Below are positions 1,987 to 36,606 of a DNA stretch of 61,307 nucleotides, one piece after another; the stretch's first letter is position 1, and each line of letters begins with the position of its first letter. Under the pieces are notes generated by a model. That model saw only the letters and a program-made list of their open reading frames with translations. It was not told where the DNA came from and did not search any database. Position numbers and translations under genes: made by a program. This stretch comes from Syntrophothermus sp. DTU052 (lineage in GTDB: Bacteria; Bacillota; Syntrophomonadia; Syntrophomonadales; DTU052). The stretch is taken from assembly GCA_001512495.1 (NCBI GenBank), contig LFRU01000007.1, positions 7,497-68,803 on the forward strand, read 5' to 3'.

Positions 1987-4291
<2,305 letters not shown>

Positions 4292-4393: not shown

Positions 4394-5572
4394 TTAAATC
4401 AGTTCCACCACGGTAGCACAAGCGGGACCGCCGCCAGCGCAGAGTGAGGCCACCCCATATTTGACGCCCCGTCTTCTCATTTCATGAACCAGGGTAATAA
4501 TCAGGCGCGCGCCCGTCTGGCCCACCGGATGTCCCAGTGAGATACCGGAGCCGTTGACGTTGATGATGCTTTTATCGATCTGCAATTCACGGTTGCAGGC
4601 TATAACCTGAGCGGCAAAGGCTTCGTTTAATTCCCACAGACCGATATCTTCTTTGGTCAGCCCCGCGTACTTCAGGGCCTTTTGCACTGCCGGCACTACC
4701 CCGATGCCCATGATCTTGGGATCAACTGCGGCCGAAGCCGTGCTGACGATTTTCGCCAGCGGTTTGAGTCCCAGCTCCGCAGCCTTTTCGCGGTGCGTCA
4801 GGATCATGGCTGCACCCGCATCGTTAAGTCCGGAGGCGTTTCCAGCGGTTACCGTCCCATCTTTCTTAAAGACCGGTCTCAATTTCGATAATGTCTCCAT
4901 ACTGGTATCAGCCCGGGGGTGTTCGTCTACCTCAAACATAACGGTTGCCTTTTTGGTTTTTACCTCAACCGGTACGATTTCCTCTTTGAACCTGCCTTCC
5001 GCAATGGCAGCGCAGGCACGCTGGTGGCTCATTAACGCCCATTCATCCTGTTCCTCGCGGCTGATGTTATACATCTCCGCCAGGTTTTCGGCGGTAATCC
5101 CCATATGATAGTCGTTGAAAGCATCGATAAGTCCGTCATAGAGCAGCTGATCAAGTAATTTGGCATCTCCCATCCTGAGCCCCTGGCGGGCTTTCTGCAC
5201 CATATAAACACAGTTGCTCATGCTTTCATAACCAACCACCATACCCATATCGAGTTTATTCAGCAGGATCTGTTGGCAAATTATTTCAGTTGCCCGCATC
5301 GATGAGGGGCACTGCTGGTTGACAGTGAGGGCTACGGTTTCGACCGGACATCCCATCCCCAGGCACACCTGACGCCCGGTATTGCCTTTATTACCACCCT
5401 GGTAAACGTGGCCGGCCGCTACCTCCTCAATCTGATCAGGCTTGATACCGGCTTTTTCAATGGCTGCTTTCCCGGCCGCAATGCCCAGCTCGACAGCGCT
5501 GAAACTGCTGAGACTTCCCATATAATCACCAATTGCAGTTCTGACAGCACTTACGATTACAACTTCTCTCAT
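4394..5572 (-). CDS. Acetyl-CoA C-acetyltransferase (thiolase II family)
   Basis: 'MREVVIVSAVRTAIG' N-terminus, 'NGSGISLGHPVGQTGARL' and 'SLCAGGGPACATVVE' C-terminal thiolase signatures. Start set at ATG 5572, which has SD GGAGGT; the upstream ORF-track extension is non-homologous. Confidence 0.9.
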   Translation of the reverse strand: MREVVIVSAVRTAIGDYMGSLSSFSAVELGIAAGKAAIEKAGIKPDQIEEVAAGHVYQGGNKGNTGRQVCLGMGCPVETVALTVNQQCPSSMRATEIICQQILLNKLDMGMVVGYESMSNCVYMVQKARQGLRMGDAKLLDQLLYDGLIDAFNDYHMGITAENLAEMYNISREEQDEWALMSHQRACAAIAEGRFKEEIVPVEVKTKKATVMFEVDEHPRADTSMETLSKLRPVFKKDGTVTAGNASGLNDAGAAMILTHREKAAELGLKPLAKIVSTASAAVDPKIMGIGVVPAVQKALKYAGLTKEDIGLWELNEAFAAQVIACNRELQIDKSIINVNGSGISLGHPVGQTGARLIITLVHEMRRRGVKYGVASLCAGGGPACATVVELI

Positions 5573-5923
5573 CCTTTTACCTCCTCTGCACGGTATGATC
5601 GGGTATAATTGAAACGGGCGAATCATCACCTCCTGCCTGCGGATGCACATATTTCGGGTACGAGGGAAAAGAGCCGTTGACGTTTTCGAGGTCGCATGCG
5701 GATGGTTGCTACTGTGGCCATATAAAAAGAGATTTAACATAGTAGCTTATTAGTGCGGCTGTTTCTGGTTATTGGCGACCAGTGTATAGAACTATTCGAC
5801 TTTTGATGATCATTTCCTGCAACAGCAATTTTACGTTAATGGAATTGTTTTGGCAGGGATCAACCAAGGTATAATAATTCTAAGATTGGGGTCCGGAAGT
5901 TTTGAAGGAAAGCGAAGGAAGCT

Positions 5924-7012
5924 ATGATAAGTGTTAGAGTTGTTGAACCGTCACGAACGGATGAATACGATCGGTTTGTATCCGGCCATCCCCAAGGACA
6001 TATACTCCAGAGCCGGGAATGGGGTGAAGTCAAGCGGAGCATGGGGTGGGTGCCCCTGCCGGTAGCGTTATATGAAGAAGGACACATCAGGGGGGCTATG
6101 CTTGTTCTCAAGCGCAGGCTGCCTATCCCCGGAATGAATAAATCAATCTTCTATGCCCCGCGGGGACCGGTAGCAGACATCGATGATCATGACCTGCTGG
6201 ACCGCCTGTTTGAGGGGGTGCGCAACCTGGCCCGGGCGCACGGGGCGATTTTTCTCAAGATTGATCCGGATATTGAAAGTACCAATGAATCTTTCAGGGA
6301 CTACCTGATATCCCGGGGCTTCAGGAAAACCTCGACGGCGGAAGGTTTTGAGGGGGTACAGCCCACCTATGTCTTCCGCCTGGATATTACTCCCGATGAG
6401 GAGCGGCTCCTGGAACAGATGGCTTCCAAAACCCGATACAATATTCGACTGGCTGGGAGAAAAGGAGTAGTTGTACGCCAGGCTGCCGAAAAGCGGGACC
6501 TTGAAGAGTTTTACCGGATACTGAAGGAAACCGCTGAAAGAGACCGGTTTCTCGTCCGTGATTACAGCTATTTCGAGGTGATCTGGGAGCACTTGGTGGA
6601 GCAGGGTAAGGCCAGACTGTTTATGGCCGAGTATCAAGACCGGTACATTGCCGGCACCCTGGCCTTTATCCTGGGAGATAAGGCCTGGTACATCTATGGC
6701 GCATCCAGTAACGAGCACCGTAACGTAATGCCCAACTACCTCTTGCAGTGGACCATGATCAAGTGGGCCCGGGAAAATGGATGTACCCTGTACGATTTTC
6801 GGGGGGTTTCCGGTGACTTATCGGAGGACAACCCCCTTTACGGACTTTATCGCTTTAAAAAGGGGTTTGCCGCCACCTTTACCGAGTTTATCGGAGAGTG
6901 GGATCTGGTTTACTCTCCCCTGTTTTACTGGTTATGGACCCGGGTGCTGCCCGTCTACTACAGGACCGTCAGGCGGGTCATACGTTGGAGGAAGAGGCTG
7001 AACCATGACTGA
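5924..7012 (+). CDS. FemAB/FemX-family peptidoglycan aminoacyl(peptidyl)transferase
   Basis: Family-typical blocks 'IFYAPRGP', 'KTRYNIRLAGRKG', 'YGASSNEHRNVMPNYLLQW' and 'YDFRGV'. SD GAAGGAAG lies upstream of the ATG. Confidence 0.8.
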   Translation: MISVRVVEPSRTDEYDRFVSGHPQGHILQSREWGEVKRSMGWVPLPVALYEEGHIRGAMLVLKRRLPIPGMNKSIFYAPRGPVADIDDHDLLDRLFEGVRNLARAHGAIFLKIDPDIESTNESFRDYLISRGFRKTSTAEGFEGVQPTYVFRLDITPDEERLLEQMASKTRYNIRLAGRKGVVVRQAAEKRDLEEFYRILKETAERDRFLVRDYSYFEVIWEHLVEQGKARLFMAEYQDRYIAGTLAFILGDKAWYIYGASSNEHRNVMPNYLLQWTMIKWARENGCTLYDFRGVSGDLSEDNPLYGLYRFKKGFAATFTEFIGEWDLVYSPLFYWLWTRVLPVYYRTVRRVIRWRKRLNHD

Positions 7013-8860: not shown

Positions 8861-9709
8861 ATGGCATTAGTACCGATGACAGAACTATTGGCTAAAGCTG
8901 AGGCAGGAAGATACGCAGTCGGAGCTTTCAACGCCAACAATATGGAAATAGTTCAGGCTATTGCTATAGCCGCTGAAAGAGAACAGGCTCCGGTTATAAT
9001 GCAGGCCAGCCAGGGGGCAATTAAGTACGCCGGTTTGGATTACATAATAGGCATGGTAAAAATAGCTGCCGAAAGTACGCGGGTTCCTGTTGCCCTGCAC
9101 CTGGACCACGGAACCAGTTTTGAACAGGTAGTCAGGTGTATCCGGGGGGGCTTCAGTTCGGTTATGTACGACGGATCGCAATTCCCCCTGGAAGAGAATA
9201 TTTTCATGACCAAAAAGGTAATCGAAATCGCCCGGCCCATCAATGTATCGGTGGAAGCGGAACTGGGCAAGATCGGGGGTACGGAAGATGATATCAGTGT
9301 CAAAGAAAGCCTTCTTACCGACCCCTATGAAGCCGAGGTTTTTGTTAGAGAAACCGGAGTCGATGCCCTGGCGGTAGCGATAGGCACCGCTCACGGACAG
9401 TATAAAGGCGAGCCCGAACTGGATTTTGATCGTCTGAAAAAGATCCGGGAATTGGTTAGTATACCTATTGTTCTGCACGGGTCTTCCGGGGTGCCTGATG
9501 AGTCGATTACTAAAGCCATCAGCCTGGGGGTGCGAAAGGTCAATATTGACACCAATATTCGAGAGGCCTTTGTTGCCCGGTTAAGACAGGAGATGGAAAA
9601 AAATCCTGCCGAAATAGATCCGCGCAAGCTATTGGGACCGGCTAGGGATGCAGCGGTTGAGCTTATTCGTGAGAAGATAAGACTGTTTGGCAGTTCTGGA
9701 AAGGCTTAG
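8861..9709 (+). CDS. fba: Class II fructose-1,6-bisphosphate aldolase
   Basis: 'AVGAFNANNMEIVQAI', 'PVALHLDHG' and 'LVLHGSSGVP'-like ('IVLHGSSGVPD') motifs. Confidence 0.9.
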   Translation: MALVPMTELLAKAEAGRYAVGAFNANNMEIVQAIAIAAEREQAPVIMQASQGAIKYAGLDYIIGMVKIAAESTRVPVALHLDHGTSFEQVVRCIRGGFSSVMYDGSQFPLEENIFMTKKVIEIARPINVSVEAELGKIGGTEDDISVKESLLTDPYEAEVFVRETGVDALAVAIGTAHGQYKGEPELDFDRLKKIRELVSIPIVLHGSSGVPDESITKAISLGVRKVNIDTNIREAFVARLRQEMEKNPAEIDPRKLLGPARDAAVELIREKIRLFGSSGKA

Positions 9710-9854
9710 CCGCAAGCGGGAGTAAGCCTGGGGTCACTCCGCTGGACATGGTTGTCTGCTTAACATACCTTTATCAACGGTACCTGTTTATTAAACATAT
9801 GTTCCGATTATTACAAGACCATTAAAACATGCAACAGGGGGATATGGGGATATT

Positions 9855-10505
9855 ATGAAGATATTCATTGACTCGGCCAACATCGAAGAGATTCGTGAAA
9901 TCAACGATCTGGGATTTTTGGCCGGGGTTACGACCAATCCCACCCTGGTAGCCAGGGAGAAGGGCGATTTTCACCAGATGGTGCAGCAGATCTGTGACAT
10001 AGTTGACGGCCCGGTTAATGCTGAACCCCTGGGGGTGACTTTCAGTGAATTGATTAACGAGGGCCAGGCATTAGCCGGCCTCCATCCCAATATCGTAGTA
10101 AAGATACCGCTATGCGAAGACGGTTTGAGAGCTATGAGATACCTTTCCCGGAGGGGAATCAAGACCAATGCCACCCTGGTGTTCTCTGCCAATCAAGCCC
10201 TGCTGGCGGCCAGAGCCGGAGCCGACTATGTCAGTCCTTTTGTGGGGAGGATTGATGATACCGGAAACGATGGCCTCCAGGTTTTGGCAGATATAGTGAA
10301 CATCTTGGACCAGTATGCAGTCGATACGGAGATTATCGCCGCCAGCATCAGGCACCCCATGCACGTTACGGAAGCAGCAAAAATTGGGGCCCATATTGCC
10401 ACCATACCTTATAAGGTGATTAAAGCCATGATAAGGCATCCCTTGACCGATGTGGGAATAGAAAAGTTTGTGGAGGATGGAAAGAAGCTACAGGGTAAGA
10501 TTTGA
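9855..10505 (+). CDS. tal: Transaldolase (short Fsa/TalB-type, 216 aa)
   Basis: 'MKIFIDSANIEEI', 'GVTTNPTL', 'VVKIP' and 'NATLVFS' motifs. Confidence 0.9.
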   Translation: MKIFIDSANIEEIREINDLGFLAGVTTNPTLVAREKGDFHQMVQQICDIVDGPVNAEPLGVTFSELINEGQALAGLHPNIVVKIPLCEDGLRAMRYLSRRGIKTNATLVFSANQALLAARAGADYVSPFVGRIDDTGNDGLQVLADIVNILDQYAVDTEIIAASIRHPMHVTEAAKIGAHIATIPYKVIKAMIRHPLTDVGIEKFVEDGKKLQGKI

Positions 10506-23950: not shown

Positions 23951-24133
23951 CAGCCGGGGAGAGGAGTCTTATTAATGGGCAGAGAACATAAGAGTCTGTG
24001 TTTGAGCGATCTTTGTGTAACAGAACCCGGCAAAGTTCAGACTATTCAAAACATGAAAAAAAGAGGAATTTGCCGTGGAGTAGAGAAATCAAATTTGGGT
24101 CAATAATGACTCATGAAGGAAAAAAGGGGAAAT

Positions 24134-24478
24134 ATGGAAAAGAAGAGCGGTAATTGGGTCAAGTCTTTGGGTAATGCTGTATCCATGGCTGCCAGCTTCG
24201 CGGCTGCGGTCGCGCTGGGTTACTTTGTCGGCAGTTATCTGGATTCGCGCCTGGGGACTGAACCCTACCTGATGCTGATCCTGTTACTGCTGGGAGTGGC
24301 GACCGGTCTTAAAATAATGTATGAGCAGGCATTCGGAAAAAGAAACGACAAGAGCTTCGGGGAAGAGAAGATGGAATCACAGAAGTACCGGCCCAGCAAA
24401 GAGATAATTGCCGCGCTGGACGAGGCCAAAAAAAGGCTGGCAGAGCTGGACAAATCCGAGCCTGAATCTAGAGACTAA
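24134..24478 (+). CDS. atpZ: AtpZ/AtpR-like small membrane protein, first gene of the atp operon
   Basis: Two TM helices ('AVSMAASFAAAVALGYFVG', 'YLMLILLLLGVATG'). Position immediately upstream of atpI. ATG 24134 follows SD AAGGGGA. Confidence 0.6.
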   Translation: MEKKSGNWVKSLGNAVSMAASFAAAVALGYFVGSYLDSRLGTEPYLMLILLLLGVATGLKIMYEQAFGKRNDKSFGEEKMESQKYRPSKEIIAALDEAKKRLAELDKSEPESRD

Positions 24479-24501: not shown

Positions 24502-24822
24502 ATGTATAATATGACAGTGTTCATAGGGGTAGCGGTTGGTCTGGTATTATCCGGTCTGTCAGTCTGGTTAAACCTAAAGACATTGAAAATAGCCGGGGAA
24601 ATGCCGCCCCGGGAAGGTGCCAAACAGATTATTATCAGGTATATGGCTAGAATTGCGGCACTAACCGTATTTTTGGGGTTGCTTACCTGGCTGGCAGGAT
24701 TATATATAATAATTGGAATTTTAAGCGGTATGGTCCTCGGTAGTATAGTCTTTCTGGTCGTAAGTCGGGGCAATCGGACATTTATTGAACGTTTGGTTAA
24801 CGGACCTGGAGGACGGTACTGA
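24502..24822 (+). CDS. atpI: ATP synthase protein I
   Basis: 106-aa hydrophobic protein between atpZ and atpB. Confidence 0.6.
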   Translation: MYNMTVFIGVAVGLVLSGLSVWLNLKTLKIAGEMPPREGAKQIIIRYMARIAALTVFLGLLTWLAGLYIIIGILSGMVLGSIVFLVVSRGNRTFIERLVNGPGGRY

Positions 24823-25638: not shown

Positions 25639-25866
25639 ATGGAAGGGATGTTTGCAATTGGTGCCGGCATTGCTGTAGCCGTAGGAGCTTTGGGCGGTGG
25701 TATCGGCATGGGCAGCCTTGGAGGAAAAGCTATGGAAAGTATCGCCCGGCAGCCCGAAGTCGCGGATCAGGTTAGAACTCTGCTGTTTATCACCCTGGCT
25801 TTTATTGAAACCCTGACTATTTACGGCCTGCTTATCGCATTTATGCTGGTTGGCAAAATTGGATAA
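25639..25866 (+). CDS. atpE: F0 subunit c (operon copy)
   Basis: 'ARQPE' loop and ion-binding Glu in 'AFIETLTIYGL'. ATG 25639 follows SD GGAGGG. Confidence 0.9.
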   Translation: MEGMFAIGAGIAVAVGALGGGIGMGSLGGKAMESIARQPEVADQVRTLLFITLAFIETLTIYGLLIAFMLVGKIG

Positions 25867-28657: not shown

Positions 28658-29554
28658 ATGGCAAAGGGAGTAAGAGACTACAAGAGACGCATTCGAAGCG
28701 TCAACAATACCATGCAGATTACCAGAGCCATGAAAATGGTTGACGCCGCCAAGCTGAGGAGAGCACAGGAGAAGGCTGAGGCCTCTCGTCCCTATACCGG
28801 CAAGCTGCAGGAGGTTGTTGCCAGGCTGGTAGCGATGGCAGCACAGGCCAAACACCCGCTGCTGGAAAGGCATGATCCGATTAAAAAGGTCACCTACGTG
28901 GTAATTACTGCGGACCGAGGATTGTGCGGAGCCTTTAACACCAATATTATAAGGCGGGCCATCCATGCTATTAGTGAGGATGGAAGGCCGGTGGAAGCGG
29001 GCATTGTAGCAGTGGGCAGGAAAGGTCGTGACTTTTACCGCAAGCGGGGATATAACCTCCAGGGAGATTTCATCAACCTGGGTGATAAACTTGACTATAC
29101 CCAGGCCCGGGAGATTGGACAGTTTATTGCTCAACTGTATGAAGAGGGAGCTGCTGATGAGGTTTACCTCGTCTATGCTCACTTCGTCAATGCTATGCGA
29201 CAGATACCTACGGTGCAAAAGGTGCTGCCGATAGAGACACCGGAAGAGATTACGGCCGAGGCCGAAGAATTCGCCAAATTCGCGCCGGATTACATCTACG
29301 AGCCCAATGTAGAGGAGATCCTGATTAGCCTGCTGCCGCGTTACCTGATGAGCCAGGTGTATCATGCCATGTTGGAATCCAAGGCCAGCGAGCATGGAGC
29401 TCGTATGACGGCTATGGGGAATGCAACCGAAAACGCATCAGAGTTGGTGGAAGTACTTACACTGGAGATGAACAAAGCCCGGCAGGCTGCTATAACCAGT
29501 GAAATAATAGAGATCTCCGGTGGCGCAGAGGCTCTGAAAAAAGGAGGCAAGTAG
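28658..29554 (+). CDS. atpG: F1 subunit gamma
   Basis: 'IRSVNNTMQITRAMKMV' N-terminus and 'ARQAAITSEIIEI' C-terminus. Confidence 0.9.
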   Translation: MAKGVRDYKRRIRSVNNTMQITRAMKMVDAAKLRRAQEKAEASRPYTGKLQEVVARLVAMAAQAKHPLLERHDPIKKVTYVVITADRGLCGAFNTNIIRRAIHAISEDGRPVEAGIVAVGRKGRDFYRKRGYNLQGDFINLGDKLDYTQAREIGQFIAQLYEEGAADEVYLVYAHFVNAMRQIPTVQKVLPIETPEEITAEAEEFAKFAPDYIYEPNVEEILISLLPRYLMSQVYHAMLESKASEHGARMTAMGNATENASELVEVLTLEMNKARQAAITSEIIEISGGAEALKKGGK

Positions 29555-30988
<1,434 letters not shown>

Positions 30989-30991
30989 CCT

Positions 30992-31408
30992 ATGGCGGGA
31001 AACACCTTTTTGTTGGAGGTGGTTACTCCGGAACGCATTGCATTGAGTGAAGAGGTGAAATTCGTAGTAGTACCCGCGATGGAAGGGGAACTGGGAATAC
31101 TGAGTAACCACGCACCCATAGTTGCAGGTTTAAGAATAGGGGTATTGAGGTACACCATGCCCAATGGCGAAGTTCATTATATGGCACTCAGTGGCGGGCT
31201 GATGGAAGTAATCGACAACGAAGCCAAGGTTCTGGCCGAGACCGCCGAACATGGTCGGGAGGTTGACCTGCTCCGGGCAAAAGCGGCCAAGGAGCGTGCC
31301 GAAAGAAGGTTGGCGGAGAGGCAGGATCAGATCAGCTACGTCAGAGCCCAGATGGCATTGCTTCGAGCATTGGCCAGAATCAAAGCGTCAGAACTGGAGC
31401 GAGGATAA
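30992..31408 (+). CDS. atpC: F1 subunit epsilon
   Basis: Beta-sandwich N-domain 'LEVVTPE' followed by a two-helix C-domain. Last gene of the operon. Confidence 0.9.
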   Translation: MAGNTFLLEVVTPERIALSEEVKFVVVPAMEGELGILSNHAPIVAGLRIGVLRYTMPNGEVHYMALSGGLMEVIDNEAKVLAETAEHGREVDLLRAKAAKERAERRLAERQDQISYVRAQMALLRALARIKASELERG

Positions 31409-31422
31409 TTAAGGTTTAAGGT

Positions 31423-31452
31423 GTGATAAGCCGGGGTACCCCGGCTTATCAC
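31423..31452. terminator. 30-nt perfect palindrome after atpC (terminator-like, no U tract)
   Basis: GTGATAAGCCGGGG-TA-CCCCGGCTTATCAC. Confidence 0.5.
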
Positions 31453-31528
31453 ATAATCGTACCAGTAAATGATGCAAAGGATAAATACCTCTGGTAGGAG
31501 GAATGTCATATTCAGGGGGGCGTCTTGA

Positions 31529-31687
31529 ATGAGCAGTCTGCAGAAGCTTTTCCTCTTACTCGCTTTGGGGTATTTGCTGGTGAAACTGGTATTTGCCCTG
31601 CTGTTGTATGCAGCTACCAAAAGGGTAGAAGAAAAGGGGCGAGAATTTCACAGAAAAAGAAATGCACTGAAAGATAAGACCGTCTAG
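31529..31687 (+). CDS. 52-aa single-TM protein, short member (A1) of a local three-paralog family
   Basis: Not in the ORF track (<60 aa). MSSLQKLFLLLALGYLLVKLVFALLLYAATKRVEEKGREFHRKRNALKDKTV. SD GGGGGG lies 8 nt upstream. Its own terminator contains the stop codon. Shares 'LQKxFLLxAxGYLxxKxV...Y' and 'EKxxxxxKR' with the ORFs at 32346 and 32786. Confidence 0.6.
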   Translation: MSSLQKLFLLLALGYLLVKLVFALLLYAATKRVEEKGREFHRKRNALKDKTV

Positions 31688-31703
31688 ACGGTCTTATTAT
31701 TTT
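31674..31703 (+). terminator. Intrinsic terminator after small ORF A1
   Basis: ATAAGACCGTC-TA-GACGGTCTTAT followed by TATTTT. Confidence 0.7.
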
Positions 31704-32004
31704 GGCCTGGTGGCATTATTCATTAATGGATTCCTCATCAAATTTCTCCCTGGATCATAAAATAGAATGAGACAGTATATCAATTACAGGAAATTTAAAG
31801 AAGGATATTCTGCAAGCGTGGCGAATAGTATTCACACCTGAATTGACAGAATATATTATACAATCAATACACCGAAGCGGTCTTCAGCGGCCCGGCACAA
31901 CATTGCACCATTTTAAGTACCGGATACACCAGGGGAATAACAGGAAAGGGGTGATAGGTCAAGATTATTAGTCGTTTAATACAGAGAGAAAAGGAGGAGG
32001 AGTT

Positions 32005-32229
32005 ATGGGAGGGACGGTGGCTATTGGAGCGGCCATGTCTGTTGCCATATCTGGGTTCGGCGGTAGCCTCGGCATGGGTAGCCTTGGGGGGAAGGCCATG
32101 GAGAGCATTGCCCGTCAACCAGAGGTTGCGGAACAAGTACGTACCCTGCTATTCATTACTTTAGCCTTCATCGAAACATTAACCATCTATGGATTGTTAA
32201 TCGCATTTATGCTTGTCGGCAAGATTTAG
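32005..32229 (+). CDS. atpE: Second, orphan F0 c-subunit paralog (74 aa)
   Basis: MGGTVAIGAAMSVAISGFGGSLGMGSLGGKAMESIARQPEVAEQVRTLLFITLAFIETLTIYGLLIAFMLVGKI. The C-terminal 52 residues match the operon copy except one D->E. Very strong SD AAGGAGGAGG. Confidence 0.85.
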   Translation: MGGTVAIGAAMSVAISGFGGSLGMGSLGGKAMESIARQPEVAEQVRTLLFITLAFIETLTIYGLLIAFMLVGKI

Positions 32230-32345
32230 CATACACTTCATCAAAGTTCTAATCGTGAGTAACCGTTTAACTGAAAACAACATTCCCGGCTAACAGGTCA
32301 GCAAAGACGTCTTAAGCACCTGGTTGCTTAGGAAGGGGAGGACTC

Positions 32346-32579
32346 ATGACCTTACTCCAAAAAGTCTTTCTCCTGTTCGCTTTGATGTACCTTCTAATCA
32401 AAGGAGTCATCTTTTTCGCCCTGTATCTGATTACGCTACGGATAGAGAAAAGGGCCCTGGCTTTAAAAAGAAAAAGGGAAAAAATACTCAGAAAAAGATG
32501 GCTCCAAAACCGTGAATTATATCGTAAGCAATACGAAGACTATGAGAAACGAAAGAAGTTGATAGATGCCAACGAATAA
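32346..32579 (+). CDS. 77-aa single-TM protein with Lys/Arg-rich helical tail (paralog A2)
   Basis: MTLLQKVFLLFALMYLLIKGVIFFALYLITLRIEKRALALKRKREKILRKRWLQNRELYRKQYEDYEKRKKLIDANE. SD GGGGAGG. About 50% identical (hand alignment) to the frame starting at 32786. Confidence 0.7.
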   Translation: MTLLQKVFLLFALMYLLIKGVIFFALYLITLRIEKRALALKRKREKILRKRWLQNRELYRKQYEDYEKRKKLIDANE

Positions 32580-32785
32580 TGGCAGGACCTCCCAGTAAAG
32601 TTAATTAAATAACCGAGGGTAAAATAAAGAGCGGAATATGGCAACCAAGCCGGAAAGAAATAATGTCGGCTCAGAAACAAGCGATTATGAGGCAGTGGCC
32701 GAATTGGTGAACTAAAGATTAAGCACGGCTCATACAAAGATACAGACAGAGTATGAGAAGAGTATGAAGGAGGAGGTGTTGCCAC

Positions 32786-33019
32786 ATAACTGCACTCCAA
32801 AAGATATTTCTGCTTATTGCCGTTGGATACTTAATAATCAAGGTGGTAATGGGCATCATTGTCTATATAATCACCCTCGAAGTGGAGAAAAAGGGGCTGG
32901 AACGCAAGAGGCACAGAGAGGCTTTATTAAGGGAAAGACGAATGAAAAATCGGGAACTGTATCGTAGGCAATACCTTCAACTGGAGGAGAGAAAAAGAGA
33001 GTTTGCGGCGATGGAATAA
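32786..33019 (+). CDS. 77-codon paralog A3; ATA occupies the start position (non-canonical start or recently inactivated gene)
   Basis: Frame not reported in the ORF track. (ATA)TALQKIFLLIAVGYLIIKVVMGIIVYIITLEVEKKGLERKRHREALLRERRMKNRELYRRQYLQLEERKREFAAME. SD AGGAGG ends 9 nt before the ATA. There is no in-frame ATG/GTG/TTG between the upstream TGA (32765) and the internal Met codon 21. Confidence 0.45.
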   Translation: MTALQKIFLLIAVGYLIIKVVMGIIVYIITLEVEKKGLERKRHREALLRERRMKNRELYRRQYLQLEERKREFAAME

Positions 33020-33056
33020 CGCATGAATTCCAGATTAACAAGGCCACAACATGAAT

Positions 33057-33079
33057 CCCCGTAATTACGGGGTTTTTTT
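33057..33079 (+). terminator. Intrinsic terminator closing the atpE2-A2-A3 unit
   Basis: CCCCGTA-AT-TACGGGG followed by T7, nested inside an outer stem CAAGGCCACAA / TTGTGGCCTTG (33039-33088). Confidence 0.8.
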
Positions 33080-33214
33080 GTGGCCTTGCATGCCCGAGCG
33101 GTGACCAAACGGCTTATTGTGTTAAGCAGGCGGCTTAACTAATAACTCGCAGGTATTTGTTTCCCCCCGGTTTCATAAAAAAGTATTGGCTGAAAATTAA
33201 GGGGGATACAACCG

Positions 33215-34126
33215 GTGAGAACACAAAAAAAAATATTGGCGGGGATGGTAATACTGGCCATGGCAATCGCAGTCAATGCCACAGTGTACAAATATTTCCG
33301 GGGTGGATTAATGATAAGATTGCTTCAGACCGGCGAGAGAACGATTATAGACCTGCCTATTGAAGAGTACCTGGTGGGGGTGGTACTGGCTGAAATGCCG
33401 GCCGGCTTTGAATTAGAGGCCCTTAAAGCTCAGGCGGTCTGTGCCCGCACCTATACACTCAAAAGACATTTCCGCCATACCGGGCATGAGCAGGAGGCCA
33501 GTGTATGTGATGATATCAACCATTGTCAGGCCTACGTTGCGCCGGCGGCATACCTGGAACGTTACCCTGATAATGAGTGGGCAGTTCAAAAAGTGCGGCG
33601 GGCGGTGTTAGCCACCCGGGGTGTGGTGATTACTCTCCGGGGAGAACTGGTTGAGCCGGTTTATCATTCCACCTGCGGAGGCCACACCGAAGATTCATCG
33701 GCGGTGTGGGGATATAGGCACGACTATCTGCAGGGTGTACCATGTCTCTGGGATAGCGGCTCACCCCATTACTGCAATACGTTAAATATATCGATGGCCG
33801 AGTTCCAGAGACTGTTGGGCCTTGATCAAAAAAAACCATTGGTAATCGGTTGGGTGGAGTCCACCAAAAACGGCACCGTAGAAAAGATTGCTTGGGGAAA
33901 TACTATAATGAGCGGTCACCAGGTCCGCCAGGCACTTAAGCTCCCGTCTGCCAAATTCAACATAACCGTAAATGATGAGACCGTGGCTGTTACCACGGTA
34001 GGGAGCGGTCACGGGGTGGGGCTCTGTCAGTACGGGGCCAACGGCCTGGCTGAAGAAGGGAAAAACTACCGGCAGATACTGCATCACTATTATCAGGGTA
34101 TTACCTTATATCGGGTCCGCTATTAG
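33215..34126 (+). CDS. spoIID: Stage II sporulation protein D (SpoIID/LytB domain)
   Basis: 'EEYLVGVVLAEMP', 'EALKAQAVCARTY', 'YHSTCGGHTE' and 'GHGVGLCQYGA' motifs. GTG start after SD AAGGGGGA. Confidence 0.9.
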   Translation: MRTQKKILAGMVILAMAIAVNATVYKYFRGGLMIRLLQTGERTIIDLPIEEYLVGVVLAEMPAGFELEALKAQAVCARTYTLKRHFRHTGHEQEASVCDDINHCQAYVAPAAYLERYPDNEWAVQKVRRAVLATRGVVITLRGELVEPVYHSTCGGHTEDSSAVWGYRHDYLQGVPCLWDSGSPHYCNTLNISMAEFQRLLGLDQKKPLVIGWVESTKNGTVEKIAWGNTIMSGHQVRQALKLPSAKFNITVNDETVAVTTVGSGHGVGLCQYGANGLAEEGKNYRQILHHYYQGITLYRVRY

Positions 34127-34249
34127 TCGATGGGCGCAACATCATCAGATGGGTATAAACCTCTCCGCACCCGGACCGCGAAGCTTCCCGCCGTTAACCT
34201 AAGAATATCGAACAACCCATTTTTTCACCGTCCGGCGAGGAGCCTTGAT

Positions 34250-34279
34250 GAATACGCCGCTGCCCGGCCGAATACACAT
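34250..34279 (+). promoter_or_regulatory. Candidate sigma-E-type promoter for spoIIID
   Basis: GAATAcg (34250-34256) - 14 nt - aATACAcaT (34271-34279), compared with the consensus kmATATT-N14-CATACAnT. Partial match only. Confidence 0.3.
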
Positions 34280-34303
34280 TAAAAAAAGGCTGGGGGGAAA
34301 GCG

Positions 34304-34588
34304 GTGCAAAACTACATTCGCAAGAGAGCGGTGAAGGTGGGTAAGTACATAATTCGGACTTCGGCAACCGTAAGGCAAACTGCCGATGTTTTCGGTATTA
34401 GTAAGAGTACTGTCCACAAGGATGTGTCCGAACGCCTTCCCAGAATAAATAAAGAATTGGCGGAAGAAGTCAGTAAAGTTATGCTGAAAAACAAAGCGGA
34501 ACGCCATATCAGAGGCGGAGAAGCCACACGGCGGAAGTACATAGCGCAGAGTCAGAGCCAAAACACCAATTTGGATGCCATAAAATGA
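34304..34588 (+). CDS. spoIIID: Stage III sporulation transcription factor SpoIIID
   Basis: 'YIRKRAVKVGKYII...VRQTADVFGISKSTVHKDVSERLP...RHIRGGEATRRKY' is near-collinear with B. subtilis SpoIIID. Confidence 0.9.
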   Translation: MQNYIRKRAVKVGKYIIRTSATVRQTADVFGISKSTVHKDVSERLPRINKELAEEVSKVMLKNKAERHIRGGEATRRKYIAQSQSQNTNLDAIK

Positions 34589-34663
34589 AGGAATATCCAT
34601 CTTCTCATCGAAGTATATCGCAATAAACATTAAAAGAATATGCTGATGACAGGAGGGGCATAG

Positions 34664-35689
34664 GTGTTTTTTTCCGAAGATGTGGGCATTGATCTGGGAA
34701 CCGCCAGTATCCTGGTTTTTCGTAAAGGTAAAGGAATTGTACTCCAAGAGCCTTCGGTGGTGGCCATTGATAAAGATACCAACCGTGTTATTGCGGTTGG
34801 CCAGGAGGCGCGCCGTATGCTGGGAAGAACGCCCGGGTATATTGTTGCGGTTCGTCCATTAAAAGAAGGGGTTATCGCCGATTATGAAACTACGGAAAAG
34901 ATGCTGACTTATTTTATACGCAAAGTAGTCGGCAAGAGGCTGATGTTCAAACCACGGATCATCGTCTGTGTGCCCACCGGCGCTACTGATGTTGAAGAAC
35001 GAGCTGTGCGACAGGCTACCCTGCAGGCCGGGGCCCGACAGGCTTTCCTGATCGAGGAACCGCTGGCCGCAGCCATGGGAGCCGGGATTAACATCTCGGA
35101 CCCCACCGGCAACATGATAGTGGATGTAGGGGGGGGTACTACCGATATAGCAGTCCTGTCGCTGGGAGGCATTGTCTGCCGGAGTTCTCTCCGCATTGGA
35201 GGGGACAAGTTCGATGACGCCATCATTCGTTACATCAGGCGAGAGTACAACCTTCTGATCGGCGAACGCACTGCCGAAGAGGTGAAAATCCAGATCGGCA
35301 CCGCATTTCCCACCGCCCTGGAGCAGGAAAGGGTTATGGATGTAAGAGGGAGAGACCTTTTGACCGGACTTCCCCGCACCATCCGCGTCACCTCACAGGA
35401 AACCTGGTTAGCCTTGCAGGAGGTGCTGGACGCGGTCGTTAATGCCGTCAAGGAGGTATTGGAAAAAACACCGCCGGAATTGGCCTCTGACATATTGAAT
35501 AACGGGATAGTTATGACTGGAGGAGGAGCCCTCTTGAATGGATTGGATATTCTGCTCTCCAAACAAACCAACCTGCCGGTGCATATCGCCGATGATCCCA
35601 TATCCTGTGTAGCTCTGGGAACCGGAAAAGCCTTAAACAACATAGGGTACCTGTCACAGCAGAAACAGGCGGCGCGAAGGGTTCTGTAA
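34664..35689 (+). CDS. mbl: MreB-family actin homolog (Mbl by position after spoIIID)
   Basis: '[12 protein letters not shown]', '[16 protein letters not shown]' and '[10 protein letters not shown]' motifs. Confidence 0.85.
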
Positions 35690-35701
35690 AAGGATGGTTC
35701 G

Positions 35702-35747
35702 AATATACCAGGTGGTCACGGAATGATTGGTGCCTGGTATATTTTTC
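35702..35747 (+). terminator. Intrinsic terminator after mbl
   Basis: AATATACCAGG ... CCTGGTATATT followed by TTTT. Confidence 0.75.
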
Positions 35748-35748
35748 T

Positions 35749-35778
35749 CTAAAGATGGAGCGGAGAAAATCCGATAAT
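35749..35778 (+). promoter_or_regulatory. Candidate sigma-D-type promoter for the rod-protein gene
   Basis: CTAAA (35749-35753) - 16 nt - TCCGATAA (35770-35777), compared with the consensus TAAA-N15-GCCGATAT. The spacer is one nt longer than consensus. Confidence 0.35.
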
Positions 35779-35841
35779 TATAAGGAGTGCCGGGGAGCGG
35801 CAGATTAATGCCTGCTCCTGAGTGTAGAATGAGGTGAGACT

Positions 35842-36606
35842 TTGATAAGAGGGCTTTATACCGCGTCTTCCGGGATGATGCTGCAGATGGCTCGTCAGGA
35901 CGTTCTGGCTAATAACCTGGCCAACGCCAATACCTCAGGTTTCAAAAGGGATATGGTAATAGCGCAGGAATTTCCCTCGCTGTTGCTTAAGAGAATGGGG
36001 GAGATTACCAGAAAGGATTCAATTCCCAGGCCGGTTAAACCGGAAGATATTGGTTCCCTGGGAACCGGAGCTGCTGTTCATCAGATAGTAACCGATTACA
36101 GCAACGGTACCTATAAGGCTACGGAAAATCCTTTAGATCTGGCTTTAGATGAGGGCTGCTTTTTCTGCATAGAAACGCCTGCCGGGATTCGCTACACCAG
36201 AAATGGCTCTTTCTCCGTTGATGCCGGAGGAAGGCTGGTTAACGCCAACGGGCAGCCGGTGTTGGGACTTGATGGTCCTGTACTGGTAGACGGGGATTTT
36301 GTAGTTGACGAGCAGGGCAATATAATACAGGAAGGCGTAACAGTCGATACCCTGAGTATAGTCAGGTTTCCCAATCCGAATATGCTGACCAAGATCGGGA
36401 ATGACCTGTATGCGGCCGAGGGGCAGGAACCGGAAACGCCTGATAATCCTCGGGTGCTCCAGGGATACCTGGAGTCCGCCAATGTCAACGCGGTTAGGGA
36501 GATGGTGGATCTCATAACTGTTGTCCGCAGCTATGAGGTTATGCAGAAGGTGATCCAGTCACAAGACCAAACTCTGGATAAACTTATAAACCAGGCCGGA
36601 AGGTAA
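35842..36606 (+). CDS. flgG: Flagellar basal-body rod protein (FlgG/FlhO/FlhP family)
   Basis: 'MIRGLYTASSGMMLQMARQDVLANNLANANTSGFKRD' N-terminus and 'GYLESANVNAVREMVDLI...RSYE' C-terminus. Confidence 0.85.
   Translation: MIRGLYTASSGMMLQMARQDVLANNLANANTSGFKRDMVIAQEFPSLLLKRMGEITRKDSIPRPVKPEDIGSLGTGAAVHQIVTDYSNGTYKATENPLDLALDEGCFFCIETPAGIRYTRNGSFSVDAGGRLVNANGQPVLGLDGPVLVDGDFVVDEQGNIIQEGVTVDTLSIVRFPNPNMLTKIGNDLYAAEGQEPETPDNPRVLQGYLESANVNAVREMVDLITVVRSYEVMQKVIQSQDQTLDKLINQAGR

Follow-up and report, generated by a model that had tools for sequence, protein, structure and literature searches.

Genes between atpC and spoIID

The stretch of DNA analysed here (hereafter the window) comprises 61,307 nucleotides of contig LFRU01000007.1 from Syntrophothermus sp. 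DTU052, a member of the Syntrophomonadales, and contains an ATP synthase (atp) operon. Four small plus-strand genes fill the interval between the final gene of this operon, atpC (encoding epsilon; ORF call at 30992-31408), and spoIID (33215-34126, also on the plus strand). The first, A1 (31529-31687), starts with ATG and codes for a 52-aa protein with a transmembrane (TM) helix and a short basic tail; the second, c2 (32005-32229), is a second, stand-alone ATP synthase c-subunit gene (74 aa); the third, A2 (32346-32579), codes for a 77-aa protein formed by a single helix with a tail of net charge +10, and the fourth, A3 (32786-33019), is an open reading frame (ORF) of 77 codons whose first codon is ATA. 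A1, A2 and A3 belong to one family of single-helix proteins, and this work concerns that family and its possible relation to the c subunit encoded among its members. The three genes lie at the positions and in the frames given by a preliminary description of the locus, and the failure of the ORF track to present two of them is real: A1 is below its 60-aa default, and A3 is listed only as a truncated 58-aa ORF with a GTG start.

A1, A2 and A3 are paralogs with a similarity far above chance. In BLASTP, A2 and A3 are 52% identical over 77 aa without gaps (E=3e-24), close to the 50% or so that had been estimated by hand, and A1 is 47% identical to A2 (E=1e-10) and 49% identical to A3 (E=3e-15). 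A pattern scan of one genome per species gave five related loci (L001-L005), in metagenome-assembled genomes of uncultured Syntrophomonadales or Bacillota, and further look-ups gave three more of the window clade (L058, L059 and L060), eight in total. The preliminary description had made its proposal depend on homologs with a conserved reading frame, and these exist: A1, c2, A2 and A3 are in frame in all eight loci, as far as their sequence reaches. The order atpC-A1-c2-A2-A3-spoIID is kept in L001-L005, L059 and L060, where the PF02823/PF00401 gene is 70-100% identical to the window's atpC, and the short fragment L058 holds c2-A2-A3 only; the flanking genes atpD, atpC, spoIID, spoIIID and mbl are also seen in the related loci other than L058. 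A1 starts 121 nt past the atpC stop codon, and its orthologs occupy the same slot in L001-L005, with TTG instead of ATG as the start codon in L001-L003.

Comparisons within the window clade, where synonymous sites are near saturation, gave ratios of nonsynonymous to synonymous substitution (dN/dS, Nei-Gojobori) of 0.07-0.36 for A1, 0.02-0.12 for A2, 0.03-0.19 for A3 and 0-0.10 for c2, and A1, A2 and A3 are all under purifying selection. By neighbour-joining, A1, A2 and A3 each form a monophyletic orthogroup to which even the most divergent genome (L005) contributes, indicating that the triplication is old and predates the clade.

A family of single-helix membrane proteins

A profile search of 1.84 billion representative proteins gave only 45 relatives, and a second one collected 151 clusters at 90% identity, all of them labelled "hypothetical" and, when named, all assigned to Syntrophomonadaceae, Syntrophomonas, Thermosyntropha or Syntrophomonadales. 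As far as these collections reach, this is an undescribed family restricted to the Syntrophomonadales. The statement of the preliminary description that no family could be recognised was borne out: A1, A2 and A3 have no Pfam match beyond chance resemblance of TM helices, the models of NCBIfam, PHROG and PADLOC do not match the family, a profile search of all PDB sequences returned only chance matches (E >= 0.58), and no literature on these mini-proteins was found. DUF1146 (the YwzB family), which had been singled out for a check, matches neither the three proteins (hmmscan, E <= 10) nor 40 family members (E <= 1). A Foldseek comparison of the AlphaFold2 model of A2 with the PDB gave 0 matches, as expected for a lone helix.

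The family is defined here by the motif MTxLQKxFL...Y15...K19(G)...Y27...E34, a single N-terminal TM helix and a basic helical tail. A1, A2 and A3 have all of these and match the hidden Markov model (HMM) of the family with E=8e-19 to 8e-30. Nearly invariant positions are M1, T2, Q5, F8, L9, Y15, K19, Y27, E34, A37 and Y63. The N-terminal motif noticed earlier in the three window proteins is real, with F8, L9, Y15, K19 and Y27 invariant or nearly so throughout the family. The layout consists of an external N-terminus of 5-6 residues (MTxLQK), a membrane span of about 25 residues and, in the cytoplasm, a basic helix that is at most about 45 residues (about 65 Å) long and is short in A1. In the AlphaFold2 model of A2, made with an alignment of 60 sequences, residues 3 to 76 form a single helix without a break (pLDDT 96). 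Conservation has a periodicity of 100 degrees both in the TM span and in the tail, with 6-7 times the mean power, which means that one helical face is conserved over about 70 residues. K19 is found in the middle of the hydrophobic span, and an aromatic stripe (F8, Y15, Y/F23, Y27) runs along the same face. The net charge of the tail is +4 in A1, +10 in A2 and +6 in A3, compared with +1 for the six N-terminal residues, so the positive-inside rule predicts an N-out, C-in topology. The genes, the family, its architecture and its conserved face can be regarded as established.

The second c subunit

Judged from its sequence, c2 is an ATP synthase c subunit, with a helical hairpin, an R-x-P loop and a carboxylate in the middle of helix 2. 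It matches PF00137 with E=3.6e-17 (62.8 bits against a cutoff of 24) and is 82% identical to the product of the operon atpE, here called c1 (25639-25866, plus strand), a canonical c subunit identified by translation and tblastn. c2 keeps the ARQPE loop (RQP) and the ion-binding IETLTIY segment. The C-terminal helices of c1 and c2 of one genome are identical in amino acids and differ synonymously in almost every codon, with synonymous sites of the two genes saturated, which points to an old duplication under extreme constraint and leads us to reject recent gene conversion as the source of the likeness in this helix; helix 1 may hold a very short tract of conversion, over G-M-G-S-L.

Most differences between c2 and c1 are found in helix 1, which lines the inside of the ring, and here the glycine motif of c2 is altered by Gly-to-Ser changes (GALGGGIG in c1, SG(F/L)GGSLG in c2, codons about 10-25). 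The glycine motif of helix 1 influences the stoichiometry and size of c-rings. The window lineage has GMGSLGGKAMES in both c1 and c2, and its relatives L059 (c1 3184-3408, c2 9656-9880) and L060 (c1 3181-3411, c2 9711-9944) have GQG(I/Y)VGGKALES in both genes, so that GQG has become GMG, among other changes, in the two copies. We take the replaced Gln to be the helix-1 Na+ ligand of the Na+-binding c-ring signature. A parallel replacement at this putative ligand position suggests that c1 and c2 work in the same ion-binding context, and hints at a ring shared by both and at a possible shift in coupling ion.

Association with c-subunit genes in other genomes

The pairing of the mini-proteins with an extra c-subunit gene, which the preliminary description had proposed to look for in relatives, was found both in the window clade and in Syntrophomonas, where the mini-protein genes precede a stand-alone c gene by 100-180 nt at a distance from any atp operon. 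In Syntrophomonas palmitatica (L006) a 74-aa c-subunit gene (6416-6640) begins about 115 nt after the gene for a family member of 100 aa, with a GGDEF gene and pyruvate:ferredoxin oxidoreductase genes as neighbours and the atp operon distant. L011 has the same pair (c at 5450-5674) between LigD and Usp genes; both loci lie far from atp genes, and in both the spacing from the mini-protein gene to the c gene is 100-145 nt and the c gene gives a 74-aa PF00137 product. A Syntrophomonas-type profile gathered 46 metagenome loci, 11 of which have a c-subunit gene on the same strand 60-200 nt downstream of the mini-protein gene. Another of the 46, L058, has a c gene followed by two mini-protein genes, as in the window. 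The flanking genes differ among the six c-linked loci that were examined.

The stand-alone c subunits of Syntrophomonas form a separate clade with the cytoplasmic loop A(R/K)(L/M)P(E/K) instead of ARQPE; the comparison set consisted of other Syntrophomonadaceae c subunits from the same search, with canonical ARQP, presumably the operon copies. This loop is the site where c subunits contact F1 (gamma/epsilon). For 10 of the 20 R(L/M)P clusters, the longest contig equals to the nucleotide that of a mini-protein cluster, down to contigs of 1763 and 1880 nt. Two further R(L/M)P clusters were looked up and both have a mini-protein gene directly upstream, one of them with a GTG start and missed by the gene caller; an upstream mini-protein gene was present in every case checked. 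Loci with R(L/M)P-loop c subunits are L006, L011, L013, L014, L017, L020, L029, L061 and L062. Because c-linked clades occur on both deep branches of the family tree, the association between mini-protein and c subunit is probably ancestral.

A further small gene accompanies the family outside the window clade, from which it is absent. It is a micro-ORF of about 32 aa, hydrophobic, with the consensus MxGLLxALAIxxSLISGxxSxLYVFKRxYLE(S/T) (HMM E 1e-14 to 1e-20), which ends 37-94 nt before the mini-protein gene in nearly all Syntrophomonadaceae-group loci and is usually uncalled. It was found in L006 (5786-5932), L009 (4826-4960), L012 (4818-4928), L038 (896-1009 and 1565-1681) and about 45 other loci, and L038 has two micro-ORF/mini-protein cassettes in tandem. 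In one Syntrophomonas clade a gene for a sigma-54 enhancer-binding protein (PAS, Sigma54_activat, HTH_8) lies divergently upstream of the micro-ORF/mini-protein/c cassette (L061, 558-1946, and L062, 137-1525, both on the minus strand; probably also L013, 991-2388, and L014, 912-2312). A loose -24/-12 pattern for a sigma-54 promoter gave one distant match only before the Syntrophomonas mini-protein genes.

Transcription and translation signals

All signals in this section are on the plus strand. c2, A2 and A3 would form one transcription unit with its own promoter: there is no terminator between them, and the unit ends in an intrinsic terminator (33057-33079; CCCCGUAAUUACGGGG followed by U7), which is kept in the relatives, in L004 and L005 with compensatory changes of the stem. 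A second intrinsic terminator (31674-31703; -16.6 kcal/mol, z = -4.4, with a U-rich tail) has the TAG stop of A1 in its loop, and its 3' arm and T-run are kept in L002 and L003. The preliminary description had regarded these two terminators as delimiting the set of mini-protein genes; both are real, but the one at 31674-31703 separates A1 from c2-A2-A3 and does not bound the whole set. Between this terminator and c2 there is a non-coding block of about 160 nt (31706-31866) that aligns across L001-L004 with near base-for-base identity, even though the flanking genes are near saturation at synonymous sites. Within the block lies a sigma-70-like promoter (TTCACA-17-TATTAT, 31831-31859; scan score 10/12), and the conservation extends about 120 nt further upstream than this promoter-like sequence. 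The block may serve to bind a regulator or may give rise to an RNA, from either strand. A search with Rfam, not aimed at antisense or antitoxin RNAs, found nothing real above threshold in 29000-36000.

As described earlier, each of the three genes has a Shine-Dalgarno (SD) sequence, all G-rich, to which it must be added that the SD of A3 is predicted to be masked by long-range pairing. Directly after the stop codon of A2 there is an anti-SD element (32580-32592; UGGCAGGACCUCC), which pairs with 32772-32784 in the minimum free energy fold, in the consensus fold of four species and as an isolated duplex (-22.4 kcal/mol). Its target lies within the SD and spacer of A3 (32767-32785; GAAGGAGGAGGUGUUGCCAC), a stretch that does not vary among L001-L004, either in the SD or in the spacer. 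All 8 window-clade loci have a single copy of the motif GGCA[AGT]G[AG]CCTCC, against 0/54 other loci. In L004 the motif falls within an extended A2 reading frame (codons V-A-G-P-P), suggesting that the element is conserved as RNA and not as protein. It is probably a device for translational coupling from A2 to A3: in this classic arrangement, a ribosome completing A2 would open the ribosome-binding site of A3, and the coupling would fix the A2:A3 ratio. In the middle of the A2-A3 spacer, a conserved AUGGCAAC (32638-32646) opens a non-conserved ORF of 25 codons; its GGCAAC could take the place of the anti-SD element by pairing with GUUGCC in the spacer before A3.

A hairpin adjoins the A2 SD (32310-32333; UCUUAAGCA / UGCUUAGGA), with the stem kept and the loops variable in L001-L004, and it holds the first of the TTAAGCA copies that the preliminary description had taken, from their recurrence before A2, A3 and spoIID, as traces of local duplication. 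This idea is rejected, since the window has 11 copies against 6.3 +/- 2.6 expected and the divergence of the paralogs is ancient; the copy before A2 is an arm of the conserved hairpin, and the one before spoIID sits in an insertion specific to the window. This insertion (33105-33145) forms a hairpin (GUUAAGC/GCUUAAC, -13.1 kcal/mol) and is absent from five related loci. At the other end of the interval, a hairpin of 15 bp without a U-tract follows atpC (31421-31454; -27.8 kcal/mol, z = -6.4); its core AAGCCGGGG...CCCGGCTT is kept in L001-L004 and the window, which are the five closest loci, and L005 shows a variant of the hairpin. This structure is probably an operon-end stabiliser or a partial terminator. 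A conserved SD-like sequence, GGTAGGAGGAA (31493-31503), precedes the A1 SD by about 25 nt in five loci, with no consistent ORF after it.

As for the neighbours, spoIID (PF08486, E=5.6e-26) has a conserved promoter-like region of its own (CATAAAAAAGTATTG), and a role of the mini-proteins in sporulation, as this neighbour might suggest, was judged weak, since relatives elsewhere lack sporulation neighbours. The atp operon has the order PF09527 gene (AtpQ/AtpZ type, 24113-24478), 106-aa ORF, a, c, b, delta, alpha, gamma, beta, epsilon, and the genome has normal b and delta genes. The 106-aa membrane ORF (24502-24822), between the PF09527 gene and atpB, occupies the AtpI slot and belongs to no Pfam family (there is a sub-threshold SpoIIM-like match, E=1e-4); it is kept in L059 and L060, there too without a Pfam match. 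MurA was not among the ten large ORFs covered by a non-exhaustive scan between 5.9 and 20 kb.

Proposed role and alternative explanations

We propose that A1, A2 and A3 serve as dedicated partners of c2, the auxiliary c subunit, and are involved in its assembly, stabilisation or regulation, a reading whose chances we put somewhat short of even. Its basis in the compared genomes is that linkage to a c gene recurs in independent contexts, and that c2 is ancient, intact and changing in parallel with c1. According to this proposal, the conserved helical face of the mini-proteins would be their binding surface for c2 or for a c-ring with c2 in it, with Lys19 at the depth of the ion-binding carboxylate of the c subunit and the basic tail over the cytoplasmic loops of the ring, and the mini-proteins would in this way assemble, stabilise or restrain a rotor that contains c2. 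The physical interaction with c2, the Lys-Glu pairing and the effect on assembly or rotation are what we infer. There is a precedent for the reasoning on the mid-membrane Lys19: an interaction with c-subunit carboxylates was argued in the same manner for the AtpR protein of N-ATPases, from its conserved basic residues in the core of the membrane (PMC2881411).

Several observations weigh against this proposal. In about two thirds of the sampled Syntrophomonadaceae-group loci the available flank contains no c gene; these loci include an 81-aa subgroup that follows an RHH_5 gene and a 100-aa subgroup that follows XRE-type genes, which means that the family is not exclusively a partner of c subunits. 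In most loci of this group, c-linked or not, the constant neighbour is the micro-ORF of about 32 aa and not a c subunit. Moreover, the RQP loop of the window's c2 is normal, unlike that of the stand-alone c subunits of Syntrophomonas, so the two modules may not be equivalent, and Lys19 could merely snorkel to the lipid head groups. Either the family has diversified beyond a c-linked role or the c link is one specialisation. Of the earlier suggestion of F-ATPase accessory proteins, then, one part stands, as distant relatives do lie beside stand-alone c genes in unrelated neighbourhoods, and it has to be narrowed by the finding that the link is not universal.

The strongest alternative, which we hold to be rather unlikely, is a function unrelated to ATP synthase, as a toxin-like peptide (a possibility already named in the preliminary description), a stress-induced membrane-active peptide or a two-peptide membrane system with regulators of its own, the adjacency to c genes being due to inherited hitch-hiking of a neighbouring pair of genes. 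A hydrophobic helix with a Lys/Arg-rich tail is typical of small membrane toxins (PMC12648545), there are several paralogous cassettes per genome (in tandem in L038), many copies follow XRE or RHH_5 regulator genes with no c subunit, and the micro-ORF lies beside the mini-protein gene with or without a c gene. A sequestered SD and a weak start codon, both seen in A3, are also common in toxin mRNAs; the signals of A1 and A2 are open and strong or ordinary. The proteins are longer than typical toxins: at 75-150 aa, with a conserved face of about 70 residues, they exceed the needs of a pore-forming peptide. Further arguments against a toxin are the stable position in the core genome under strong purifying selection, in lineages that differ by 30% (atpC) to 55% (spoIID) in amino acids, and the fact that no mobile-element or phage context was seen and no PHROG or PADLOC model matches. 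Finally, R(L/M)P-type c subunits apparently occur only with an upstream mini-protein gene, and hitch-hiking is hard to sustain across unrelated neighbourhoods.

A bolder extension of the c2-partner proposal, which we consider improbable, is that the Syntrophomonadales have an auxiliary rotor module made of a second c subunit and one to three single-helix proteins with a mid-membrane Lys. The mini-proteins would dock on the ion-binding carboxylates or on the inner face of the ring, and would either build a c-ring, hybrid or alternative, whose ion-to-ATP ratio differs or act as a reversible brake. The c subunit of this module has the re-modelled F1-contact loop R(L/M)P in Syntrophomonas and the Gly-to-Ser glycine motif in the window clade.

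Less probable still is that the basic helix is a membrane-tethered inhibitor in the style of IF1, zeta, the C-terminal domain of epsilon or AtpTheta, which would reach F1, for example the acidic DELTDED loop of beta or gamma/epsilon, and block ATP hydrolysis or synthesis. The genes directly follow the F1Fo operon, and in the geometry of F1Fo a helix of about 45 residues and 65 Å could suffice to span the stalk region. Control of the direction of the ATPase is physiologically important in butyrate-oxidising syntrophs. The ATP synthase of Syntrophomonas wolfei is constitutively abundant in membranes (PMC3582634). The IF1/zeta-like inhibitor suggested in the preliminary description found no match in sequence (PDB profile search, solved inhibitors included) or in fold (Foldseek), however, and the conserved face runs through the membrane span, pointing to a partner inside the membrane and away from F1. 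What recurs beside these genes is a c-subunit gene and not an F1 gene, and A1 is conserved though most of its tail is missing.

A narrower objection, which we likewise hold to have little chance of being right, is that A3 is a recently inactivated pseudogene (ATG to ATA), leaving only A1 and A2 functional. Codon 1 is ATA (32786-32788), and the frame has no ATG, GTG or TTG between the preceding stop at 32765 and this codon; the same position has ATG in four related species and, in a second lineage (L002), ACG (6448-6450). Gene callers give only a truncated 56-aa product without the TM helix, on 220 contigs of the window species and 28 of the L002 species, and exact look-up found an ATG-start full-length version on none in either case. 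However, the ORF is intact in both the ATA and the ACG lineage, and a perfect, invariant SD (GGAGGAGG) lies 7 nt before codon 1. For the 21 codons before the first canonical in-frame start, the ratio of nonsynonymous to synonymous differences (pN/pS, from small counts) is 0.10-0.20 in comparisons with the ATA or ACG lineages and 0.14-0.27 in pairs of ATG lineages. Because purifying selection persists on these codons, A3 looks like a gene translated from a near-cognate codon and not like a pseudogene. That two independent near-cognate codons are each fixed throughout their species, and that no further decay has followed, is better explained by down-tuned initiation than by loss of the gene. As for the three ORFs being chance reading frames of an intergenic spacer, their shortness and the missing annotation of full-length A3 would agree with it, but the pairwise E-values (1e-10 to 3e-24), the frame kept in eight related loci from other assemblies, the dN/dS values well under 1 and a family of 151 clusters refute it and leave it practically no probability.

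Significance

The family is new and unannotated, and the idea of a small accessory membrane protein for the rotor of F-type ATPases is already known in outline (AtpI, AtpR). Syntrophs that oxidise butyrate or other fatty acids gain a fraction of an ATP per reaction, and they run F1Fo both forwards and backwards for reverse electron transport. If the proposed partnership with c2 is true, this lineage-specific and strongly conserved module, in which an extra c subunit is joined by dedicated single-helix proteins, would offer a testable handle on how these organisms tune the coupling ratio and the direction of their ATP synthase, and the small accessory proteins known for F-type ATPases would include one more type; if the rotor module exists, it would be a means of shifting the gear or direction of the enzyme at the thermodynamic limit. 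Even without a link to the ATPase, the work defines an unannotated family of about 150 clusters, together with a putative natural case of ATA and ACG initiation codons used species-wide and a clean, though predicted, example of anti-SD translational coupling.

Comparison with known systems

DUF1146 (YwzB) presumably occupies in Bacillus the slot of A1, directly after atpC, and the likeness is limited to this slot, position alone giving no membership of a family. Other small membrane proteins encoded with Fo genes are AtpI/UncI and AtpZ/AtpQ (PF03899, PF09527), the former of which, in a work cited in PMC2881411, assists c-ring assembly. These are multi-pass proteins encoded at the 5' end of the operon, and no sequence relation to the mini-proteins was found.

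In architecture only, a single N-terminal TM helix followed by a long charged helix recalls the b and b' subunits (PF00430) and mitochondrial ATP8 (A6L), and b and b' are also a pair of paralogs, as A2 and A3 might be. The tail of the mini-proteins, however, is not even a third as long as the b helix and is strongly basic instead of mixed in charge. Neither A1-A3 nor 40 family members match PF00430, and descent from the b subunit was rejected, with an hhalign probability of 0.3% against the window's own b subunit. Phospholamban, sarcolipin and AtpTheta are known mini-proteins that consist of one helix, TM or amphipathic, and regulate a large ion-motive ATPase, the last being a small basic inhibitor of F1Fo (Song et al. 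2022, as cited in PMC12648545). They differ in topology and in target (P-type pumps, or soluble binding to F1Fo), and have no match in sequence or fold to the present family.

AtpR (urf2, TIGR03165) of the N-ATPases has three predicted TM segments and two Arg residues and is encoded inside the atpDCQRBEFAG operon; conserved Arg residues in the middle of the membrane have been proposed to pair with the carboxylates of c subunits in assembly or regulation, which was never shown (PMC2881411). The mini-proteins have no match in NCBIfam or Pfam and do not have the three segments and two Arg of AtpR. Their single TM helix carries one Lys and leads into a long, basic helix in the cytoplasm, and they accompany a lone c gene and not a complete second ATPase (N-ATPase) operon. 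AtpR is nevertheless the closest analogue in logic, as in both cases a small hydrophobic protein with conserved basic residues in the middle of the membrane is encoded beside ATPase c genes.

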